A stretch of DNA of 44,747 nucleotides from Escherichia coli (lineage in GTDB: Bacteria > Pseudomonadota > Gammaproteobacteria > Enterobacterales > Enterobacteriaceae): NCBI GenBank assembly GCA_029912145.1, contig GCA_029912145.1_4350.1. One strand, written 5' to 3'. Positions within the stretch are counted from its first letter, which is position 1. Each line of letters opens with the position of its first letter. The translations under genes and the position numbers were made by a program. The notes below the pieces were generated by a model. It was not told the DNA's origin and searched no databases. It saw only the letters and a list, made by a program, of their open reading frames with translations. Of the stretch, positions 10,995 through 29,954 are shown piece after piece.

Positions 10995-11248
10995 TGGTCA
11001 ATTAAATGTCGTGTCTGGTGCTGGCAGTGCATGGCCCAGCTATACATCGACTCGAAGACATAAAAGTCAGGCTTGGCAAAAGTCGTGCGCTTAATCTGCG
11101 ACACGTGACGGCCTATATCTTTGGGCCTGGGTACTTTGCCTAAGTACGCCATCTCTTCCATCTGGTGCGCACCGGAAGGAGCGCGCAATAGCCATAGAGC
11201 CTCCGTGTTATCCCGTCGGTCAATACCTCGGTAGAGTTGGTAAATCAT
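10976..11248 (-). CDS. Hypothetical protein (90 aa)
   Basis: ORF in operon context. Confidence 0.45.
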   Translation of the reverse strand: MIYQLYRGIDRRDNTEALWLLRAPSGAHQMEEMAYLGKVPRPKDIGRHVSQIKRTTFAKPDFYVFESMYSWAMHCQHQTRHLIDQWENRV

Positions 11249-11290
11249 ATTACGACCCTCTGTTAAAGCAGCCAGAAGGCCGCGGGATAG

Positions 11291-11794
11291 TTATTCTTCT
11301 TCGAAATACTTGTTCTTAATCGCCGTCAGGCGTTTCAGGTATTCAGCCAGGTCTTCGTCTTTAATCGCGGCAATCTTCATTTTCTTACCGGTGAACTCCT
11401 CCAGCAGTTCATCGGAATCGTCGCACGCAGCATCGCTAGGACCTTCGTTAATTGCATCGTCGATAGCCTGAATCTGGTCACGAAGAGACTGGTAATCGAC
11501 CTCTTCTTTCTCTTCTTCTGGTTCTGGAGTCGGCTCCTCTACTTTAGCTTTACGCGGCTTGCGTTTCGGCTTCTCTTCTTCTTCTGCTGGTTTAGCGTCA
11601 ACGATGTCTTCACCTTCAACAGGGATTTCTTTTGTTGCTTCTTTTTCGCACTCAGCTACCGCTTCTTTGGTATACACTACCGTCTCTACTTCTAACGGCG
11701 CTGCAACTTGTGCTGACTGTTTCGCACTGTTCGCAGCAATCAGTTCATGTGCAACTACGAAACGTTCCAGTAATTTTAAGAATTGTTCTAACAT
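11291..11794 (-). CDS. Highly acidic protein with a short basic patch (167 aa)
   Basis: Runs of Glu/Asp (EEEKPKRKPRKAKVEEPTPEPEEEKEE, DDSDELLEE). Confidence 0.5.
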   Translation of the reverse strand: MLEQFLKLLERFVVAHELIAANSAKQSAQVAAPLEVETVVYTKEAVAECEKEATKEIPVEGEDIVDAKPAEEEEKPKRKPRKAKVEEPTPEPEEEKEEVDYQSLRDQIQAIDDAINEGPSDAACDDSDELLEEFTGKKMKIAAIKDEDLAEYLKRLTAIKNKYFEEE

Positions 11795-18640: not shown

Positions 18641-18949
18641 TTGGATAAATTTACTGAAACAGTGACAGGCTGGCTTCTCGCTGCCGCGCTAGCCGGAGGG
18701 GTAATCGGACTACGACAACATAAGTCTGTTATTTCTGGCCCCATCGACGGATTCTGCTTTATCGCAACCGGCTTCACTTGCGCTGTATTCGGCGCGCCTC
18801 TTGCCGCTCAATGGTTCGGTATTACCGGAGAGCGCGAGATAGCTGGCCTCGGATTCATCATCGCAATTCTCTGGATGCCCATCTATTCCCGTCTCTCCGG
18901 TATCGTCTCTGGAGAATACATCGCTCGTCGAGGAGGCACAGATGAATGA
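18641..18949 (+). CDS. Holin candidate (three predicted transmembrane segments, 102 aa, TTG start)
   Basis: Hydrophobic segments; immediately upstream of the second membrane protein and endolysin. Confidence 0.6.
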   Translation: MDKFTETVTGWLLAAALAGGVIGLRQHKSVISGPIDGFCFIATGFTCAVFGAPLAAQWFGITGEREIAGLGFIIAILWMPIYSRLSGIVSGEYIARRGGTDE

Positions 18950-19214
18950 GTTATTCTGGTTCGGTGGTATGCTGGTAATCGGGGGCACATCGCTGTTTAA
19001 TGTGTATCATCCCAGCGTGGACGACGGATTATTTGGCCGGGTGCTCTATATCCTGACTGCCATCGTCTGTGCTGCCGGATGTATCCACCTGTTACAGGGC
19101 AGCATGTCACCAACGCTGCCTGAGACGTTAATCACATTAGTTGCGCTGCGTCAGATTCGCCAGGTGTGGCTGTCATACGGAGGACATAAGCGTGTCTCGA
19201 AATATTTCAGATAA
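18942..19214 (+). CDS. Second small membrane protein of the lysis cassette (holin/antiholin-like, 90 aa)
   Basis: Two hydrophobic segments; overlaps both neighbours. Confidence 0.5.
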   Translation: MNELFWFGGMLVIGGTSLFNVYHPSVDDGLFGRVLYILTAIVCAAGCIHLLQGSMSPTLPETLITLVALRQIRQVWLSYGGHKRVSKYFR

Positions 19215-19680
19215 TGGATTGCATTTTACCGCCGCGTTCGAGGGATTCCGAGGAACTGCGTATCGCGCTACACCGAATGAGAAGTACCTGACTATTGGGT
19301 ATGGAAGCTATGGCCCGCATGTTAAGGCGGGGCAGACCATCACTCCAGGACAAGGCCTCCTGTTACTTAATCGCGATATGGCTAAAGCCGTAGCTGCGGT
19401 TGATGCGGCAGCGCACCATTCACTGACACAGGCACAGTTCGACGCTGTGTGTGACCTGGTCTACAACGCAGGCGCTGGCGTGATTGCCGCTACCACGGGC
19501 ACAGGTAAGGCGCTGCGTTCTGGTGACATCGAGACGCTGCGGGCTAAGCTGACACTGTTCATCAACCAGAACGGCAGACCACTACTCGGCCTGCGTCGCC
19601 GTACAGCAGGTCGTCTGGCGCTGTTTGACGGTAAACCGTGGCAAGAGGCGGAGGCAATTGGGCGCGCGGTGAAAGGTTGA
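19192..19680 (+). CDS. Endolysin, lysozyme-like (glycoside hydrolase family 24-like)
   Basis: GTG start at 19192 preceded by RBS GGAGGA; catalytic-region pattern FEGFRG...TIGYG typical of phage lysozymes. Confidence 0.85.
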   Translation: MSRNISDNGLHFTAAFEGFRGTAYRATPNEKYLTIGYGSYGPHVKAGQTITPGQGLLLLNRDMAKAVAAVDAAAHHSLTQAQFDAVCDLVYNAGAGVIAATTGTGKALRSGDIETLRAKLTLFINQNGRPLLGLRRRTAGRLALFDGKPWQEAEAIGRAVKG

Positions 19681-25385: not shown

Positions 25386-25423
25386 ATAGTATGCTATTAA
25401 CTTTAACGCCACAGGGTTTATCT

Positions 25424-26467
25424 ATGAGCTTACTTACATCATTAATCAGCCACCAGATATGGTTGCAACGCACCGCATCCGGTGAGGTGAAAGACCTCGC
25501 GCCGTTCATTCAGGAAATGCGGGACGAAATCAAACGGCAGGTGCTGTTATTCGGTGACGACGGGCGTAGCACCGCGCGACTGAATAAACTGTTACGCGAC
25601 CTTGAAGAAGCACTGGTGGGGCTTACGGGCGACTGGCAGACAAAGCTGACAGAAGACCTTAAGGAACTGGCGGCGTATGAGGCCGAGTGGAACGTAAAGA
25701 CACTGACCGCCAACGTAGCTGCGGAATTTGTTACACCTACCGCTGAACAGGTGTGGGCTGCTGCCGAGTTTCAACCGTTATCGTTGAGCGACAAGCCTGT
25801 TGACTTCACTAAGCTGATGTCAGGTTGGGGTGAAACCGAAGTCGCGCGCCTGGTAACGGGTGTTAAGATGGGCTTTGTTCAGGGTAAGACAACACGGCAG
25901 ATTGTTACAGAAGTAGTCGGTAAAGGCGGGCTGGCTGACGTATCAGAGAAATACGCCGCTACCGTAATCCGCACTGCGCTGTCTCACGTGTCCAACGAAG
26001 CCCGCAATGAAACATACCGCCAGAACGACGATATCATCGAGAAGTACGAATGGGTGTCAACGCTGGACAGCCGTACCAGTACGATTTGCAGGGCCAGAGA
26101 CGGGATGATGTGGGAAATCGGTAAAGGGCCAATGCCGCCAGCCCATCCGAATTGTCGGTCGTGCACAGCTCCGGTAATCAGTTCAGAGTTCGACTTCCTC
26201 GATAAAGGCGCAAAACGGGCGGCTAAGGGTGCAGATGGCGGTACTCAGGTAAACGCGGACACCACTTATTACGAGTTTCTGAAACAACAACCGGCGTGGT
26301 TTCAGGACCAGGCGCTCGGCCCGGTGCGAGGTAAGATTTTCCGTAACAGCGGTATATCGCCGGAAGAGTTTCGCGTAATATCTGTAGATGGTTTCGGGAA
26401 TCCGCTCACGCTTAAGCAGATGGCGGAACTCGATAAACGTGTTGCTGATTATCTGAAAGGGGATTAA
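25424..26467 (+). CDS. Head morphogenesis protein (Mu gpF / SPP1 gp7-like)
   Basis: HPNCRSCTAPV motif typical of the gp7/MuF family; follows the portal gene. Confidence 0.8.
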   Translation: MSLLTSLISHQIWLQRTASGEVKDLAPFIQEMRDEIKRQVLLFGDDGRSTARLNKLLRDLEEALVGLTGDWQTKLTEDLKELAAYEAEWNVKTLTANVAAEFVTPTAEQVWAAAEFQPLSLSDKPVDFTKLMSGWGETEVARLVTGVKMGFVQGKTTRQIVTEVVGKGGLADVSEKYAATVIRTALSHVSNEARNETYRQNDDIIEKYEWVSTLDSRTSTICRARDGMMWEIGKGPMPPAHPNCRSCTAPVISSEFDFLDKGAKRAAKGADGGTQVNADTTYYEFLKQQPAWFQDQALGPVRGKIFRNSGISPEEFRVISVDGFGNPLTLKQMAELDKRVADYLKGD

Positions 26468-26469
26468 CG

Positions 26470-26928
26470 ATGGGCTTTTTCAAAGTAACTGATGTACCGT
26501 CGCGCCGTGTAGTCCAGTACGCCCGAGTGTCTGGCTCTGGCGAGAACGTGGTGTTTATTAGGGATGAAAGTGTACTCGGTACACCAGTAGACGATATGCC
26601 GTTTGCGGATAAGACTGGCATCGCACTTCCTGCGGCGGGCATGCTTTACGAGATTCCGTATCTGGCTGATGCTGGCGACGTGTATTTCTCTGCACAACCA
26701 CAGGACGCTGAACTGGCAGACGGCAGCGCAACTATCACTGTAGAGGTTAAAGCCGGTAAAGCACCATATGCTCTGACCTGGTACAAAGACGGCAAGGAAG
26801 TGGTAAATGCGCCCGAAGAGGCTTTGTCTCTGACGGTTAACGCAGTTGGTGAATACTTCGTTAAGGTTACTGATGCCGATAGGGTAGAGGCTGTGAGTAA
26901 AGCGGCGAAGGTCACTAAGCCCGAATGA
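26470..26928 (+). CDS. Head-associated protein with C-terminal Ig-like domain (152 aa)
   Basis: C-terminal PYALTWYKDGKEV...GEYFVKVTD resembles Ig-like domains; shares this with the 30320-30661 gene. Confidence 0.5.
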   Translation: MGFFKVTDVPSRRVVQYARVSGSGENVVFIRDESVLGTPVDDMPFADKTGIALPAAGMLYEIPYLADAGDVYFSAQPQDAELADGSATITVEVKAGKAPYALTWYKDGKEVVNAPEEALSLTVNAVGEYFVKVTDADRVEAVSKAAKVTKPE

Positions 26929-26932
26929 TAGA

Positions 26933-26961
26933 AGGCCCCTTTAAGGGGCCTTAGTTTATTT
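26933..26961. terminator. Terminator hairpin between convergent genes (AGGCCCC-TTTA-AGGGGCCT followed by a T-rich tract)
   Basis: Read directly. Confidence 0.55.
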
Positions 26962-27240
26962 CTTTCCTAATGCTTTCTCGATTGCTCTTTTTGCCAGATT
27001 TAATGGATGGTCCTCATGGTAATCATCGGAAGATACCGCGCAAACATCCTCGACGTAATCGCGAAGCTGGCGAAGTGCTTCAAGTAACTCTGGTGCAGAG
27101 GAAATAAGCTTTGCGTTAGCCAATTTTACTGAGTCATTTTCCCTCATACTCATTACCTCCGCCACATAAACATCACCCGCCCAGATAGCCGTTTCGCAAT
27201 TAACCCATGTACCGTCTGTACCTTTAAATTTGTGTGTCAT
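26956..27240 (-). CDS. Antisense moron gene, hypothetical protein (94 aa)
   Basis: ATG at 27240 with RBS AGGAG; own TTGCAC-type promoter upstream and terminator downstream; opposite strand to the surrounding head genes. Confidence 0.6.
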   Translation of the reverse strand: MTHKFKGTDGTWVNCETAIWAGDVYVAEVMSMRENDSVKLANAKLISSAPELLEALRQLRDYVEDVCAVSSDDYHEDHPLNLAKRAIEKALGKK

Positions 27241-27267
27241 TTTGCATCTCCTGTTTAAGTTAACTGA

Positions 27268-27296
27268 ATAGTACCCTATTATATTGGTGTGTGCAA
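27268..27296 (-). promoter_or_regulatory. Early-type promoter on the minus strand: -35 TTGCAC, 17 bp spacer, -10 TACTAT(TCA), dyad AATAG-GGTA-CTATT
   Basis: Near-identical to the 15753 site. Confidence 0.6.
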
Positions 27297-27348
27297 ACTA
27301 TTTATTTACGTATTCCAGTTATTCCACTCAATTGTAAATGTTGGAATA

Positions 27349-27364
27349 AACTATTCGAATAGTT
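27349..27364. repeat. Perfect 16 bp palindrome AACTATTCGAATAGTT, abutting a TTGACT -35-like hexamer
   Basis: Read directly; built from the same GAATAG/CTATTC half-site as the promoter dyads. Confidence 0.6.
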
Positions 27365-27391
27365 GACTTTTCACTGAAAATGTGCTAAGCT
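27363..27391 (+). promoter_or_regulatory. Candidate promoter: -35 TTGACT, 17 bp spacer, extended -10 TGcTAAGCT
   Basis: Read directly; the -10 is only moderate. Confidence 0.4.
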
Positions 27392-27410
27392 CCACCTGAG
27401 CTTGTGAAGT

Positions 27411-27521
27411 ATGAACAAGCGACCGCGGCGCGGGCAGGTAACGGAGCGGGACGTAAGTCCTGAGTGTAGTTACGCTGACGCGTTCGGAAGGGCCATACTC
27501 TATTGCTTGTGTAAAAAGTAA
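27411..27521 (+). CDS. Possible small basic peptide (36 aa, MNKRPRRGQV...), or part of a noncoding RNA; not in the ORF track
   Basis: ATG-initiated ORF between promoter and terminator; weak RBS. Confidence 0.2.
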   Translation: MNKRPRRGQVTERDVSPECSYADAFGRAILYCLCKK

Positions 27522-27571
27522 CTGGTTTACTGAGATTACGCCGTTTCTATGTTTAAATGATAAGGACTAGC

Positions 27572-27598
27572 GCCCCGCTTTATGGCGGGGCTTTACTT
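27572..27598 (+). terminator. Rho-independent terminator or attenuator immediately upstream of the Rz-like gene (GCCCCGC-TTTATG-GCGGGGC followed by TTTACTT)
   Basis: Read directly; ends about 10 nt before the Rz RBS. Confidence 0.55.
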
Positions 27599-27616
27599 AT
27601 CGAGAAAGGGGGAAAC

Positions 27617-28003
27617 ATGAATCTTAAAGCAACTGTCGTAGCAGGAGCATGTTTCATCATCCTGGCTTACGCCCACGGCATTTACCAGTATCGCAGCGGC
27701 TGGAGCGAAGGCCGGGCGAATCTCGTTTCGCAGCAACAGCAGAAAGCGCAGGCTGAGTTAGCGAAGAAAACACAACGGCAGCAGCAGGACGAATCAAAGG
27801 CCGCCGCCGCTGACAACGAAGGCAAGACGAAATCAGAGGTGATTACCCGTGAAGTCGTTAAGTACATTAAAACGCCTGGTCGCAGCGTGTGCACTTTTGA
27901 CGATGCTCGCGTCCTGCTCAAGTCCCGCGCCGTCGCCAACGCCAATTCCATCTCCGGATACGACGATGATGCAGCCGCCGTGCAAGCTGGCGCCACCAAG
28001 TAG
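27617..28003 (+). CDS. Inner-membrane spanin (i-spanin, Rz-like)
   Basis: N-terminal transmembrane segment (ATVVAGACFIILAYA), Gln/Ala-rich coiled coil, periplasmic C-terminus; RBS AAGGGGGA. Confidence 0.7.
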   Translation: MNLKATVVAGACFIILAYAHGIYQYRSGWSEGRANLVSQQQQKAQAELAKKTQRQQQDESKAAAADNEGKTKSEVITREVVKYIKTPGRSVCTFDDARVLLKSRAVANANSISGYDDDAAAVQAGATK

Positions 28004-28112
28004 TGACGCGGACGAGGATTTAGCTATCGACGTTCAGAACGCCGAATGCGTACGGCAACTGAGACTGAAAGTGTTCATGTTGCAGGATTACGTGAGGAAT
28101 ATTCTGGAATAG
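27849..28112 (+). CDS. Outer-membrane lipoprotein spanin (o-spanin, Rz1-like), overlapping the 3-prime end of the i-spanin gene in the +1 frame
   Basis: Signal peptide with lipobox LASC followed by a Pro-rich mature region; overlapped architecture extending past the Rz stop. Confidence 0.65.
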   Translation: MKSLSTLKRLVAACALLTMLASCSSPAPSPTPIPSPDTTMMQPPCKLAPPSSDADEDLAIDVQNAECVRQLRLKVFMLQDYVRNILE

Positions 28113-28194
28113 TTGCCTTGCATGTTGGAATAATTTATTCTTGACATGTAAATCCGGGTGGCCCGGATTCCAACGTCCAGGGGACATACTGACT

Positions 28195-28896
28195 ATGAAT
28201 CGTTTTTTACGTTATCCGTTCCAGGAAGAAGCTGGAGCAGAAGATAAAGCTGGTGGCGGTGACGCTCCTAAAATGTTCACCGCTGAAGAAGTTCAGGCGC
28301 TGATTGAGAAAGAAGTTGCCGGGCTTAAGGCCAATCAGGAAGCATTGCTGGCGGAGAAGAAAGAAGCCGCCCGTAAAGCAAAAGAGGCCGAAGAAGAACG
28401 GCAGCGTGCGCACCAGGAGGCGTTAAAGGCCGCCGGTAAGATGGACGAGTTTGAAAAGACGATTCGTAGCCAGTATGACCCGGTGTTAGCCGAGAAAGAT
28501 GGCCGCATCTCCAAAATGGCAGAGCGCATCCTCGGCAGCGAACGTAAAGCGGTGCTAGGCTCTTTCGCGGGTGACTTTATTACCCCGGAAGCAGTGGACA
28601 TCCTTGCGCCGTTCGTTAAGACTGAGTTCGAAGGTGATGATGTGGTTACTAAGTTTGTCGGCGCAGACGGTAACGTAATCACGACTGACCCGGAACAGTT
28701 CCGCAAATACCTGCGCGAACACAAAGCGTTTTCGCATTTGATTAAAGCAAATGCAGCTTCCGGCGGCGGGGCTTCCGGTGGCAAAGGCGGCGGGGCCGCA
28801 CCAGTGTTTAAAGACATGAGTGAAGCAGAGCGTTTAGCCCTGTATAAATCGAACCCTGCCGAATTTGAACGGCAACTTAAAGCCCTGAGGAAATAA
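28195..28896 (+). CDS. Scaffolding protein (putative)
   Basis: Ala/Glu/Lys-rich coiled-coil sequence, directly upstream of the major capsid gene. Confidence 0.6.
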   Translation: MNRFLRYPFQEEAGAEDKAGGGDAPKMFTAEEVQALIEKEVAGLKANQEALLAEKKEAARKAKEAEEERQRAHQEALKAAGKMDEFEKTIRSQYDPVLAEKDGRISKMAERILGSERKAVLGSFAGDFITPEAVDILAPFVKTEFEGDDVVTKFVGADGNVITTDPEQFRKYLREHKAFSHLIKANAASGGGASGGKGGGAAPVFKDMSEAERLALYKSNPAEFERQLKALRK

Positions 28897-28898
28897 TA

Positions 28899-29954
28899 AT
28901 GGCAATTACCACTATCGGCGATATCGTAACTGGCAACATCCCGGTCCTGGCGTCTTATATGACCGAGGACCCGGTAGAAAAAACCGCGTTCTTCCAGTCT
29001 GGTATTCTCACCCCGACCCCATACGCCGCCGAGATTGCCCGCGGCCCGTCCAACGTCGCTAATATTCCTTTCTGGAAAGCGATTGATACCTCTATCGAGC
29101 CGAACTACTCGAACGACGTATACCAGGACATCGCCACCCCGCGTAACGTGCAGACCGGCGAGATGATGGCGCGCGTTGCGTACCTGAACGAAGGTTTCGG
29201 TCAGGCGGATTTGACCGTTGAACTGACCAGCCAGAACCCGCTGCAATCCGTAGCGTCACGTCTGGATAACTTCTGGCAGCGTCAGGCACAACGCCGTCTG
29301 ATTGCTACCGCGCTCGGGCTGTACAATGACAACGTAGCCGCTACCGACGCATACCACGAGCAGAAGGACATGGTAATCGACGTGTCTGCTACTCTGGGCT
29401 TCGATGCGGGCGCGTTCATCGACGCTACCCAGACTATGGGCGATGCTCTGATGGGCAACGGCGGTGAAGTGCTGGGGGCTATCGCGATGCATAGCTTCGT
29501 TTATGCGCAGGCACGTAAGCAGCAGCTTATCGACTTCATCCGTGACGCGGACAACAACACCATGTTCGCCACCTACCAGGGCTACCGCGTGATTGTTGAC
29601 GACAGCATGACCGTAGTCGGCACTGGCCCGACCCGTAAGTTCATCTCCATCATCTTCGGCAACGGCGCTATCGGTTACGGTGAAGGTTCTCCGTCCAACC
29701 CGCTGGAATACGAGCGCGAAGCGTCCCGCGGCAACGGCGGCGGCGTTGAAACCCTGTGGACCCGTAAGACCTGGTTGCTACATCCGTTTGGTTACAGCTT
29801 CACCAGTGCAGTAATCACTGGCAACGGCACCGAGACTACCCCGCGCTCTGCTTCCTGGCAGGACCTGGCGAACGCCTCCAACTGGAACCGTGTGGTTGAC
29901 CGCAAGCACGTACCGATTGCCTTCCTGGTAACTGGTGTCGGTGCTCAAGGTTAA
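28899..29954 (+). CDS. Major capsid protein
   Basis: 351 aa ORF after the scaffold gene, followed by a strong terminator; positional and compositional inference. Confidence 0.75.
   Translation: MAITTIGDIVTGNIPVLASYMTEDPVEKTAFFQSGILTPTPYAAEIARGPSNVANIPFWKAIDTSIEPNYSNDVYQDIATPRNVQTGEMMARVAYLNEGFGQADLTVELTSQNPLQSVASRLDNFWQRQAQRRLIATALGLYNDNVAATDAYHEQKDMVIDVSATLGFDAGAFIDATQTMGDALMGNGGEVLGAIAMHSFVYAQARKQQLIDFIRDADNNTMFATYQGYRVIVDDSMTVVGTGPTRKFISIIFGNGAIGYGEGSPSNPLEYEREASRGNGGGVETLWTRKTWLLHPFGYSFTSAVITGNGTETTPRSASWQDLANASNWNRVVDRKHVPIAFLVTGVGAQG

Follow-up and report, generated by a model that had tools for sequence, protein, structure and literature searches.

Two overlapping genes at positions 27617-28112 of the 44,747-nucleotide stretch of phage DNA analysed here (the window) encode a small membrane protein and a lipoprotein, as the two parts of a spanin would, and they are located among head genes at a distance from the holin and endolysin genes. 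The locus raises three questions: whether both reading frames are genes, whether the pair is the spanin of this phage, and what the separation from the other lysis genes signifies. The evidence described below indicates that the pair is very probably the two-component spanin of a Kagunavirus, the last of its three lysis functions.

Phage identity and gene neighbourhood

A search with the 2 kb around the pair matched 490 phage records, the best of which were Escherichia siphophages of Kagunavirus (Guernseyvirinae) with 94-99% nucleotide identity. Judged by these matches, the window is a Kagunavirus genome. The matching Kagunavirus records label both genes as "putative spanin", "Rz-like spanin (x2)" or "i-spanin / o-spanin", and the last terms are used here. 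Phage Ivi (~95% identity) has a gene order identical to that of the window. The order is class I holin, class II holin, endolysin, small ORFs, small and large terminase and portal, followed by minor capsid protein, Ig-domain protein, one reverse-strand gene, i-spanin, o-spanin, scaffold and major capsid protein.

The neighbours of the pair are head genes according to PHROG, terminase and portal included. A head morphogenesis gene (25391-26467) and a Hoc-like head-decoration gene (26470-26928) are located upstream of the pair, and the scaffold gene (ATG 28195 to 28896) and the major head protein gene (28899-29954) are located downstream. These assignments agree with the sequence-only reading, a short note made from the letters of the window, which had described the pair as embedded among head genes. 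The slot occupied by the reverse-strand gene at 26956-27240 varies in content among relatives. A small ORF at 27411-27521 (36 aa), listed as hypothetical in Bas76 and EnJE6, had no PHROG match. The MB78 "ribosomal frameshifting" site in the scaffold gene was also considered and was rejected for the window; the heptamer is conserved, yet both alternative frames stop almost immediately.

The same spanin layout was found in Ivi, SE2, Otaku and VSiA, and in the Dhillonvirus (HK578-like) KarlBarth. The KarlBarth pair, bas17_0005/0006, includes a homologous o-spanin with ~44% identity over the C-terminal half, and likewise follows the minor capsid gene and precedes the scaffold and major capsid genes. 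Its reverse-strand gene lies 3' of the spanin pair, whereas that of the window lies 5'. Because the position is kept throughout the subfamily and in Dhillonvirus, the arrangement is ancestral and ordinary; Guernseyvirinae and Dhillonvirus have in common a pair placed 3' of the head-morphogenesis/decoration genes and 5' of the scaffold gene.

Earlier publications on this phage group already describe the spanin pair, the overlap of its two genes and their separation from those for holin and endolysin. The announcement of Escherichia phage Schulenberg (MK931438; Microbiol Resour Announc 2019, PMC6763661) describes overlapping spanins separate from the holin/endolysin genes, and the same sets of genes appear in the papers on Golestan and SeF1. 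Schulenberg is a different isolate, and the accessory genes near its spanin pair differ from those of the window. The unusualness that the sequence-only reading had implied for this arrangement did not hold, the arrangement being the norm for the subfamily.

The two reading frames and their products

The i-spanin gene (27617..28003, plus strand; 128 aa) starts with ATG at 27617, seven bases 3' of AAGGGGG, and its stop ends at 28003. The product matched phrog_2536, labelled "Rz-like spanin", over residues 1-127 of 128 (E 7e-55) and shared 91% identity with the proteins annotated as i-spanin in phages Schulenburg and Sciku. The most hydrophobic stretch of 15 residues begins at residue 5 (ATVVAGACFIILAYA, residues 5-19; Kyte-Doolittle value of 2.2). 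A single hydrophobic segment, residues 5-21 (27629..27679, plus strand), is the predicted inner-membrane anchor, and AlphaFold2 placed a helix from residue 3. No further hydrophobic segment was detected by Kyte-Doolittle analysis beyond residues 5-21, and the remainder of the protein is hydrophilic. The inner-membrane member of a two-component spanin is expected to have one N-terminal transmembrane segment, with the remainder in the periplasm, and hydropathy predicts one such segment in the i-spanin. C92, predicted to be periplasmic, and the motif PGRxVCxF were invariant in three genera, unlike C12 in the membrane segment, which was not invariant across genera.

AlphaFold2 modelled the i-spanin with helices at residues 3-66, 73-84, 96-109 and 115-123, at a mean pLDDT of 55 and from a shallow alignment (87-97% identity). 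This low-confidence model, too poor for a fold comparison, makes a helical periplasmic domain a reasonable prediction. The helix at residues 30-66 is rich in Q, A and K, and strongly hydrophobic residues occupy 18% of its a/d positions in the best register, or 55% if Ala is counted. Analysis of heptads and of the hydrophobic moment in the long helix did not support a clear coiled coil. The Rz-like protein with an N-terminal transmembrane segment described in the sequence-only reading was therefore recovered (hydrophobic segment and phrog_2536 match), but its coiled coil was not, given the low pLDDT and the weak heptad pattern.

The o-spanin gene (27849..28112, plus strand) is in the +1 frame relative to the i-spanin gene and encodes a precursor of 87 aa and a predicted mature lipoprotein of 65 aa. 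It starts with GTG at 27849, and its stop ends at 28112. A Shine-Dalgarno sequence, GAGGTGA (27836..27842, plus strand), was read within the i-spanin frame, and GAGGTGA, GGAGGC or TGAGGTGA was present at equal distance in Ivi, SE2, dunkel, skrot, EnJE6, Bas76 and Otaku. The lipoprotein signal peptide (residues 1-22) and lipobox L-A-S-C23 are encoded at 27849..27917 (plus strand). The signal has K2, K8 and R9 in its n-region, followed by a hydrophobic core, and residues 13-23 fit a PROSITE-type lipobox pattern (ACALLTMLAS, then C23), with Ser and no Asp at position +2; the signal and lipidation are predictions from this pattern. The mature part contains 10 Pro, and cysteines at 45 and 67.

Matches of the o-spanin to two PHROG families, both labelled Rz-like spanin, were found, namely phrog_1267 (E 9.5e-19, residues 8-86) and phrog_5672 (E 4.6e-30, residues 41-87). 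The protein was 95% identical to the annotated o-spanin of phages Sciku/Shashou, and the two spanin proteins of the window were 91-95% identical to those of K1H, Sciku and Schulenburg. A large protein collection held 77 relatives of the o-spanin, down to 48% identity, several of which were named o-spanin. AlphaFold2 (pLDDT 81) gave a signal helix at residues 3-21, an extended Pro-rich linker, and a helix at residues 54-86 with pLDDT >90.

The two genes share a dual-coding overlap of 155 bp (27849..28003, plus strand), which encodes the C-terminus of the i-spanin in one frame and the signal peptide and Pro-rich linker of the o-spanin in the other. The o-spanin gene of a two-component spanin is embedded in the i-spanin gene, overlaps it or directly follows it; here it overlaps and continues 109 bp 3' of the i-spanin stop, which places the pair in the "overlapped" class. 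The claims that a lipoprotein with lipobox LASC and a Pro-rich body starts inside the Rz-like gene in the +1 frame, and that it runs 109 bp past the stop of that gene, were accurate both in the pattern match and in the exact coordinates.

Overlapping frames allow more than one explanation. The 128-aa gene alone could be real, with the +1 ORF being either a chance frame or the source of a 47-48-aa product from an internal ATG. Most gene callers and many records give only a 144-nt ORF from ATG 27966/27969, or nothing; most GenBank/RefSeq records start the o-spanin at this internal ATG and so lose the signal peptide and lipobox. In addition, long alternative-frame ORFs are common in the window. 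However, failure to call overlapped o-spanins is a documented artefact (PMC6139136), and a 47-aa product would lack an export signal although it would carry two invariant cysteines and have lipoprotein homologues.

We re-derived the gene pair from the raw DNA of nine phages in four lineages (Kagunavirus, Jerseyvirus, Cornellvirus and a Serratia phage), including Kagunavirus Ivi and Bas76, Jerseyvirus SE2, dunkel, skrot and EnJE6, Cornellvirus VSiA, and Serratia phage Otaku. Every pair consisted of an i-spanin of 119-128 aa followed by a +1-frame lipoprotein of 85-87 aa with a Shine-Dalgarno sequence and a lipobox. The lipoboxes of these pairs were LASC, LSAC, LNGC, TTAC and ITGC, and LNGC, TTAC and LAGC occurred in homologues. 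By this comparison, all four lineages keep the o-spanin frame, the Shine-Dalgarno sequence and the lipobox Cys. The full frame (85-93 aa) was open in every lineage examined despite a diverged N-terminus, which argues against a chance frame. The whole window was also scanned in six frames for lipoprotein-type ORFs, defined by a length of at least 40 aa, a charged n-region, a hydrophobic core and a lipobox. One ORF, the o-spanin, was returned, compared to an average of 0.2 in 20 shuffles; chance lipobox ORFs are thus expected at only 0.2 per genome.

Alignment of 24 full-length o-spanins, with homologues down to 43% identity, showed a variable signal peptide and linker, a retained lipobox Cys, invariant P44, C45 and C67, and near invariance of the C-terminal 35 residues (segment DADEDLAIDVQNAECVRQLRLKV). 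The 109-bp extension encodes this conserved segment and is free of constraint from any other gene. In seven Kagunavirus and Jerseyvirus sequences that aligned without gaps, the variable sites of the non-overlapped tail were distributed as 8/3/19 over codon positions 1/2/3, and the ratio of synonymous to non-synonymous changes was ~12:5 compared to Jerseyvirus. Because variation falls mainly at third codon positions, the tail is translated and has the signature of purifying selection, which speaks against a chance frame. Within the overlap, variability was greatest at the wobble positions of the i-spanin. This agrees with a published remark on tolerant parts, which names the o-spanin signal and linker and the i-spanin C-terminus (PMC6139136).

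We give almost no credence to the 128-aa gene standing alone. The GTG 27849 start (87 aa) is the correct o-spanin gene model and is better than that of most records. The gene structures, their signals, the conservation of both frames, family membership and synteny were established here. The practical value of these results is in annotation, as the public records of related phages mostly truncate or omit the o-spanin. The "p11.5" of a 1995 MB78 record corresponds to the o-spanin frame.

Probable spanin function and relation to known spanins

Lambda Rz/Rz1 is the prototype two-component spanin. The pair resembles it in combining a predicted anchored, helical inner-membrane protein with a predicted Pro-rich outer-membrane lipoprotein in the +1 frame, with periplasmic cysteines. 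The two differ in three respects. Lambda Rz1 is wholly embedded in Rz, whereas the o-spanin of the window passes the i-spanin stop; mature lambda Rz1 has ~40 aa, fewer than the mature o-spanin, in which a C-terminal helix is modelled with confidence; and lambda Rz/Rz1 directly follow the endolysin gene R in one cassette, whereas the pair is 7.9 kb away from its endolysin gene.

Membership in the lambda families was rejected, as neither the Rz (PF03245) nor the Rz1 (PF06085) model of Pfam matched at E <= 0.1. The best Pfam matches of the i-spanin were sub-threshold and were to unrelated families or DUF2514 (13.3 bits vs 26), and the o-spanin had none. Membership in P2 LysC (NCBIfam NF038368, Rz1-like) was likewise rejected, at 15.2 bits and E 0.018 vs a cut-off of 27. 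Neither spanin protein had an above-threshold family in Pfam or NCBIfam.

The pair does correspond to a described family. Kongari et al. 2018 (BMC Bioinformatics 19:326; PMC6139136) defined a "Jersey" i-/o-spanin family, classed as "overlapped" with an overlap of 155 bp, and its members include Kagunavirus K1G, K1H and K1ind1-3 and Jerseyvirus SE2, SETP3 and Jersey. This family equals PHROG 2536 plus PHROG 1267/5672, and the window pair shares its proteins and its 155-bp overlap. There was no substantive difference between them, and the window pair is an isolate-level variant. FSL_SP-031-type Cornellvirus members have an overlap of 8 bp and are counted as "separated" (PMC6139136). Cornellvirus VSiA shows this 8-bp-overlap variant. 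The description of the pair as an overlapped two-component spanin apart from the holin and endolysin genes was supported by the signals, by PHROG and by the curated annotation of 91-95% identical proteins.

The current model for lambda Rz/Rz1 is fusion of the inner and outer membranes. By analogy with that class, a topology, complex formation, disulfides and a fusion step may be proposed for the pair. The N-terminal hydrophobic segment would anchor the i-spanin in the inner membrane, and the domain exposed to the periplasm would be largely helical. Translation of the o-spanin in the +1 frame would start from a ribosome-binding site of its own, and the product would be cut between LAS and C23 and lipidated; the presence of Ser instead of Asp at residue +2 would direct it to the outer membrane, in the inner leaflet. 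The periplasmic parts of the two proteins would then bind each other and form a bridge across the periplasm. Both proteins have cysteines in their predicted periplasmic parts that could form intermolecular disulfides (C92 in the i-spanin, C45 and C67 in the o-spanin), and the bridge is probably stabilised by disulfides at these positions, with probably disulfide-linked dimers. An intact murein meshwork would keep the bridge inactive. Once the holins (18641-19214) had released the lysozyme (19192-19680) and the wall was degraded, the spanin complexes would disrupt or fuse the membranes and complete lysis. The pair would be transcribed together with the head genes.

Alternatively, the pair could serve another envelope function, as a superinfection exclusion or receptor masking lipoprotein with a membrane partner, and the true spanin could be absent or the outer membrane disrupted in another way. 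T5 Llp and Cor proteins are phage lipoproteins with such roles in superinfection exclusion or receptor masking. This possibility would fit a pair that is not adjacent to the holin and endolysin genes. It would also fit the lack of a significant match to experimentally studied spanins and the searched literature, in which no experimental test of this spanin family was found; the assignment of spanin function is based on class-defining features and curated annotation. However, a type-II-like membrane protein with a helical periplasmic domain, joined by an overlapping +1-frame, Pro-rich lipoprotein with conserved periplasmic cysteines, is the defining signature of a two-component spanin (PMC6139136). 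Because the o-spanin is the sole lipobox ORF in the genome, with 0.2 expected, there is no competing candidate to serve as the spanin, and the six-frame lipobox scan showed no second one, unimolecular or two-component, beside the endolysin gene. A separate Imm-like superinfection-immunity gene is present in relatives, and the position of the pair, universally conserved across the genera compared, suits an essential lysis role better than an accessory one. A different envelope function is therefore highly improbable, and the spanin assignment is retained in what follows.

Position relative to the holin and endolysin genes

The lysis cassette is located upstream of the pair. A first holin-family gene (18641..18949, plus strand; 102 aa) matched phrog_2359 (holin, E 1.8e-29), has hydrophobic segments and is annotated as a class I holin in Ivi. 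A second (18942..19214, plus strand; 90 aa) matched phrog_2508 (holin, E 2.5e-34). In phage Schulenberg these are termed holin/antiholin (PMC6763661). The third gene (19192..19680, plus strand) encodes a soluble lysozyme-family endolysin, with matches to Pfam PF00959 (Phage_lysozyme, E 8.9e-26) and to PHROG endolysin families. The endolysin likely starts with GTG at 19192, with GGAGGA upstream, whereas the mechanical ORF begins with TTG at 19141. No hydrophobic (transmembrane-like) segment was found at the endolysin N-terminus. The distance from the end of the lysozyme gene (19680) to the spanin start is 7,937 bp, and the sequence-only reading was correct in placing a holin and an endolysin at 18641-19680, about 8 kb from the spanins. 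Lysis genes thus need not cluster, which is relevant to the engineering and screening of therapeutic Kagunavirus and Jerseyvirus phages.

A terminator-like stem-loop is located directly before the pair (27572..27591, plus strand). It is located 25 nt upstream of the i-spanin ATG, reads GCCCCGC-(loop)-GCGGGGC followed by TTTACTTAT, has 8 pairs of which 7 are G-C, and has a U-rich tail (TTTACTTATC). As a description, "behind a terminator" was borne out. Kagunavirus and some Jerseyvirus share exactly this hairpin; in SE2 and EnJE6 the arms read GCCCGGC/GCCGGGC, so that both are changed and pairing is kept.

The same reading implied that the separation is a matter of timing, with the holin and endolysin genes expressed early and the spanin late, gated by the upstream terminator. 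The proximity of the hairpin to the i-spanin start and its conservation with a compensatory change are consistent with such a gate, as is a further hairpin 3' of the Hoc-like gene (26932-26952). Several results oppose it. The holin and endolysin genes are on the plus strand like all of the structural genes and directly precede the packaging genes, with ~2.4 kb between them and the small terminase gene. In RNA-seq of Kagunavirus vB_Eco_K1B4, which gives coarse temporal classes only and names neither spanins nor holins, the lysozyme, F-like head protein, capsid and tail genes were all in class "middle". The assignment of the holin and endolysin genes to an "early region" is unsupported on both counts.

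The Dhillonvirus i-spanin provides further evidence against a timing gate. It is shorter, its gene overlaps the minor capsid gene at the end of the latter, and the upstream intergenic region with its hairpin is absent; because this pair lacks the hairpin, the upstream hairpin is not needed for spanin function. A scan of 26400-28400 returned no sigma-70-like promoter, compared to an average of 1.8 in shuffles. Timing is an improbable explanation for the separation, and the co-transcription with head genes proposed above for the spanin is preferred.

A second stem-loop, AATCCGGG-TGG-CCCGGATT (28151..28169, plus strand), was read between the o-spanin stop and the scaffold ATG (28195) and has no T tract. 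It is retained among relatives with different outer pairs, as CACCGGG-TGG-CCCGGTG in Jerseyvirus and GCCGGG-TGG-CCCGGC in Otaku. An Rfam scan of 26800-28300 (E <= 1) detected no known RNA family, so that neither the hairpins nor the intergenic region correspond to a described RNA. It is possible, but doubtful, that the stem-loops at 27572-27591 and 28151-28169 are conserved regulatory RNA elements that set the amount of spanin relative to scaffold and capsid. Their roles could then be those of a partial terminator or 5' stabiliser and of a processing site. If so, the tuning of outer-membrane disruption would depend on head-gene expression and not on the holin-endolysin cassette, and the stem-loops would set the spanin dose against the very abundant scaffold and capsid proteins encoded on the same late transcript.

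Spanin position and public annotation of the o-spanin

A homologous spanin pair was found in Dhillonvirus KarlBarth (L010, 4548-4989), at the same head-module position as the i-spanin (27617-28003, +) and overlapping o-spanin (27849-28112, +) genes of the window. The placement of spanins within the head module is therefore a synteny older than Guernseyvirinae. In KarlBarth, there is an overlap between the i-spanin and the end of the minor capsid gene, and the spanin pair is followed by a reverse-strand gene.

The o-spanin is wrongly annotated in many public records. It is shortened to 47-48 aa in the SE2 RefSeq, skrot, and Bas76 records, and likewise in the protein family phrog_5672, by a start at an internal ATG, which results in loss of the signal peptide and lipobox. 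The record of Serratia phage Otaku is missing the o-spanin annotation, and that of EnJE6 places the label "o-spanin" on the i-spanin. The loci concerned are 27966-28112 in the window and, in sequences of related phages, 11480-11623 (L002), 1119-1262 (L006), 1131-1274 (L009), 11179-11436 (L003), and 728-1223 (L007).

The 1995 record of Salmonella phage MB78 (L004, X87092.1) has loci of interest at 1232-1555 and 2252-2258. Its CDS "p11.5" represents the reading frame of the o-spanin, lengthened upstream to an ATG, and its i-spanin frame appears to be interrupted by frame changes. In the scaffold gene (p26/p28), the record also marks the heptamer TTTAAAG as a site of "ribosomal frame shifting". 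This heptamer is conserved at about 28807-28813 of the window, again in the scaffold gene, where both alternative frames hit stops within a few codons.

Sequences flanking the spanin pair

Two stem-loops bracket the spanin pair, and neither had a family match in Rfam. In SE2 and EnJE6, G-C replaces a C-G pair of the upstream stem-loop (27572-27591). At 28151-28169, the downstream stem-loop AATCCGGG-TGG-CCCGGATT has no T tract and lies 26 nt upstream of the scaffold ATG at 28195; compared with Jerseyvirus (CACCGGG..CCCGGTG) and Otaku (GCCGGG..CCCGGC), its core CCGGG-NGG-CCCGG is kept and the outer pairs vary.

Within the 377-bp intergenic region 5' of the spanins is a 36-aa ORF (27411-27521, +) that could be a small gene or merely conserved regulatory DNA. 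It is annotated as "hypothetical protein" in the Bas76 and EnJE6 records and has a partial likeness in SE2 (..AFGRAxLYC..); no PHROG match was found for it.

Downstream of the Hoc-like gene and ahead of the spanins, a bidirectional-looking hairpin (26932-26952) precedes a 94-aa reverse-strand gene (26956-27240, -) of phrog_1273, a family of unknown function. Among the matches listed for the region, only Kagunavirus LM02P1 also has this gene. Its slot holds a beta-clamp-domain gene in Ivi, an adenine methyltransferase in dunkel, and an HNH endonuclease in fEg-Eco19, and is empty in SE2 and EnJE6. The slot appears to be an accessory-gene hot spot.

Endolysin start and type

At the locus 19141-19214, the mechanical ORF of the endolysin starts at TTG 19141; the likely start is the alternative GTG 19192, with GGAGGA just upstream. 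From this GTG, the gene shares 23 nt with the end of the second holin gene, and Ivi is annotated alike. Because no N-terminal hydrophobic segment is present in the enzyme, its sequence looks like that of a canonical holin-dependent endolysin, not a SAR endolysin.
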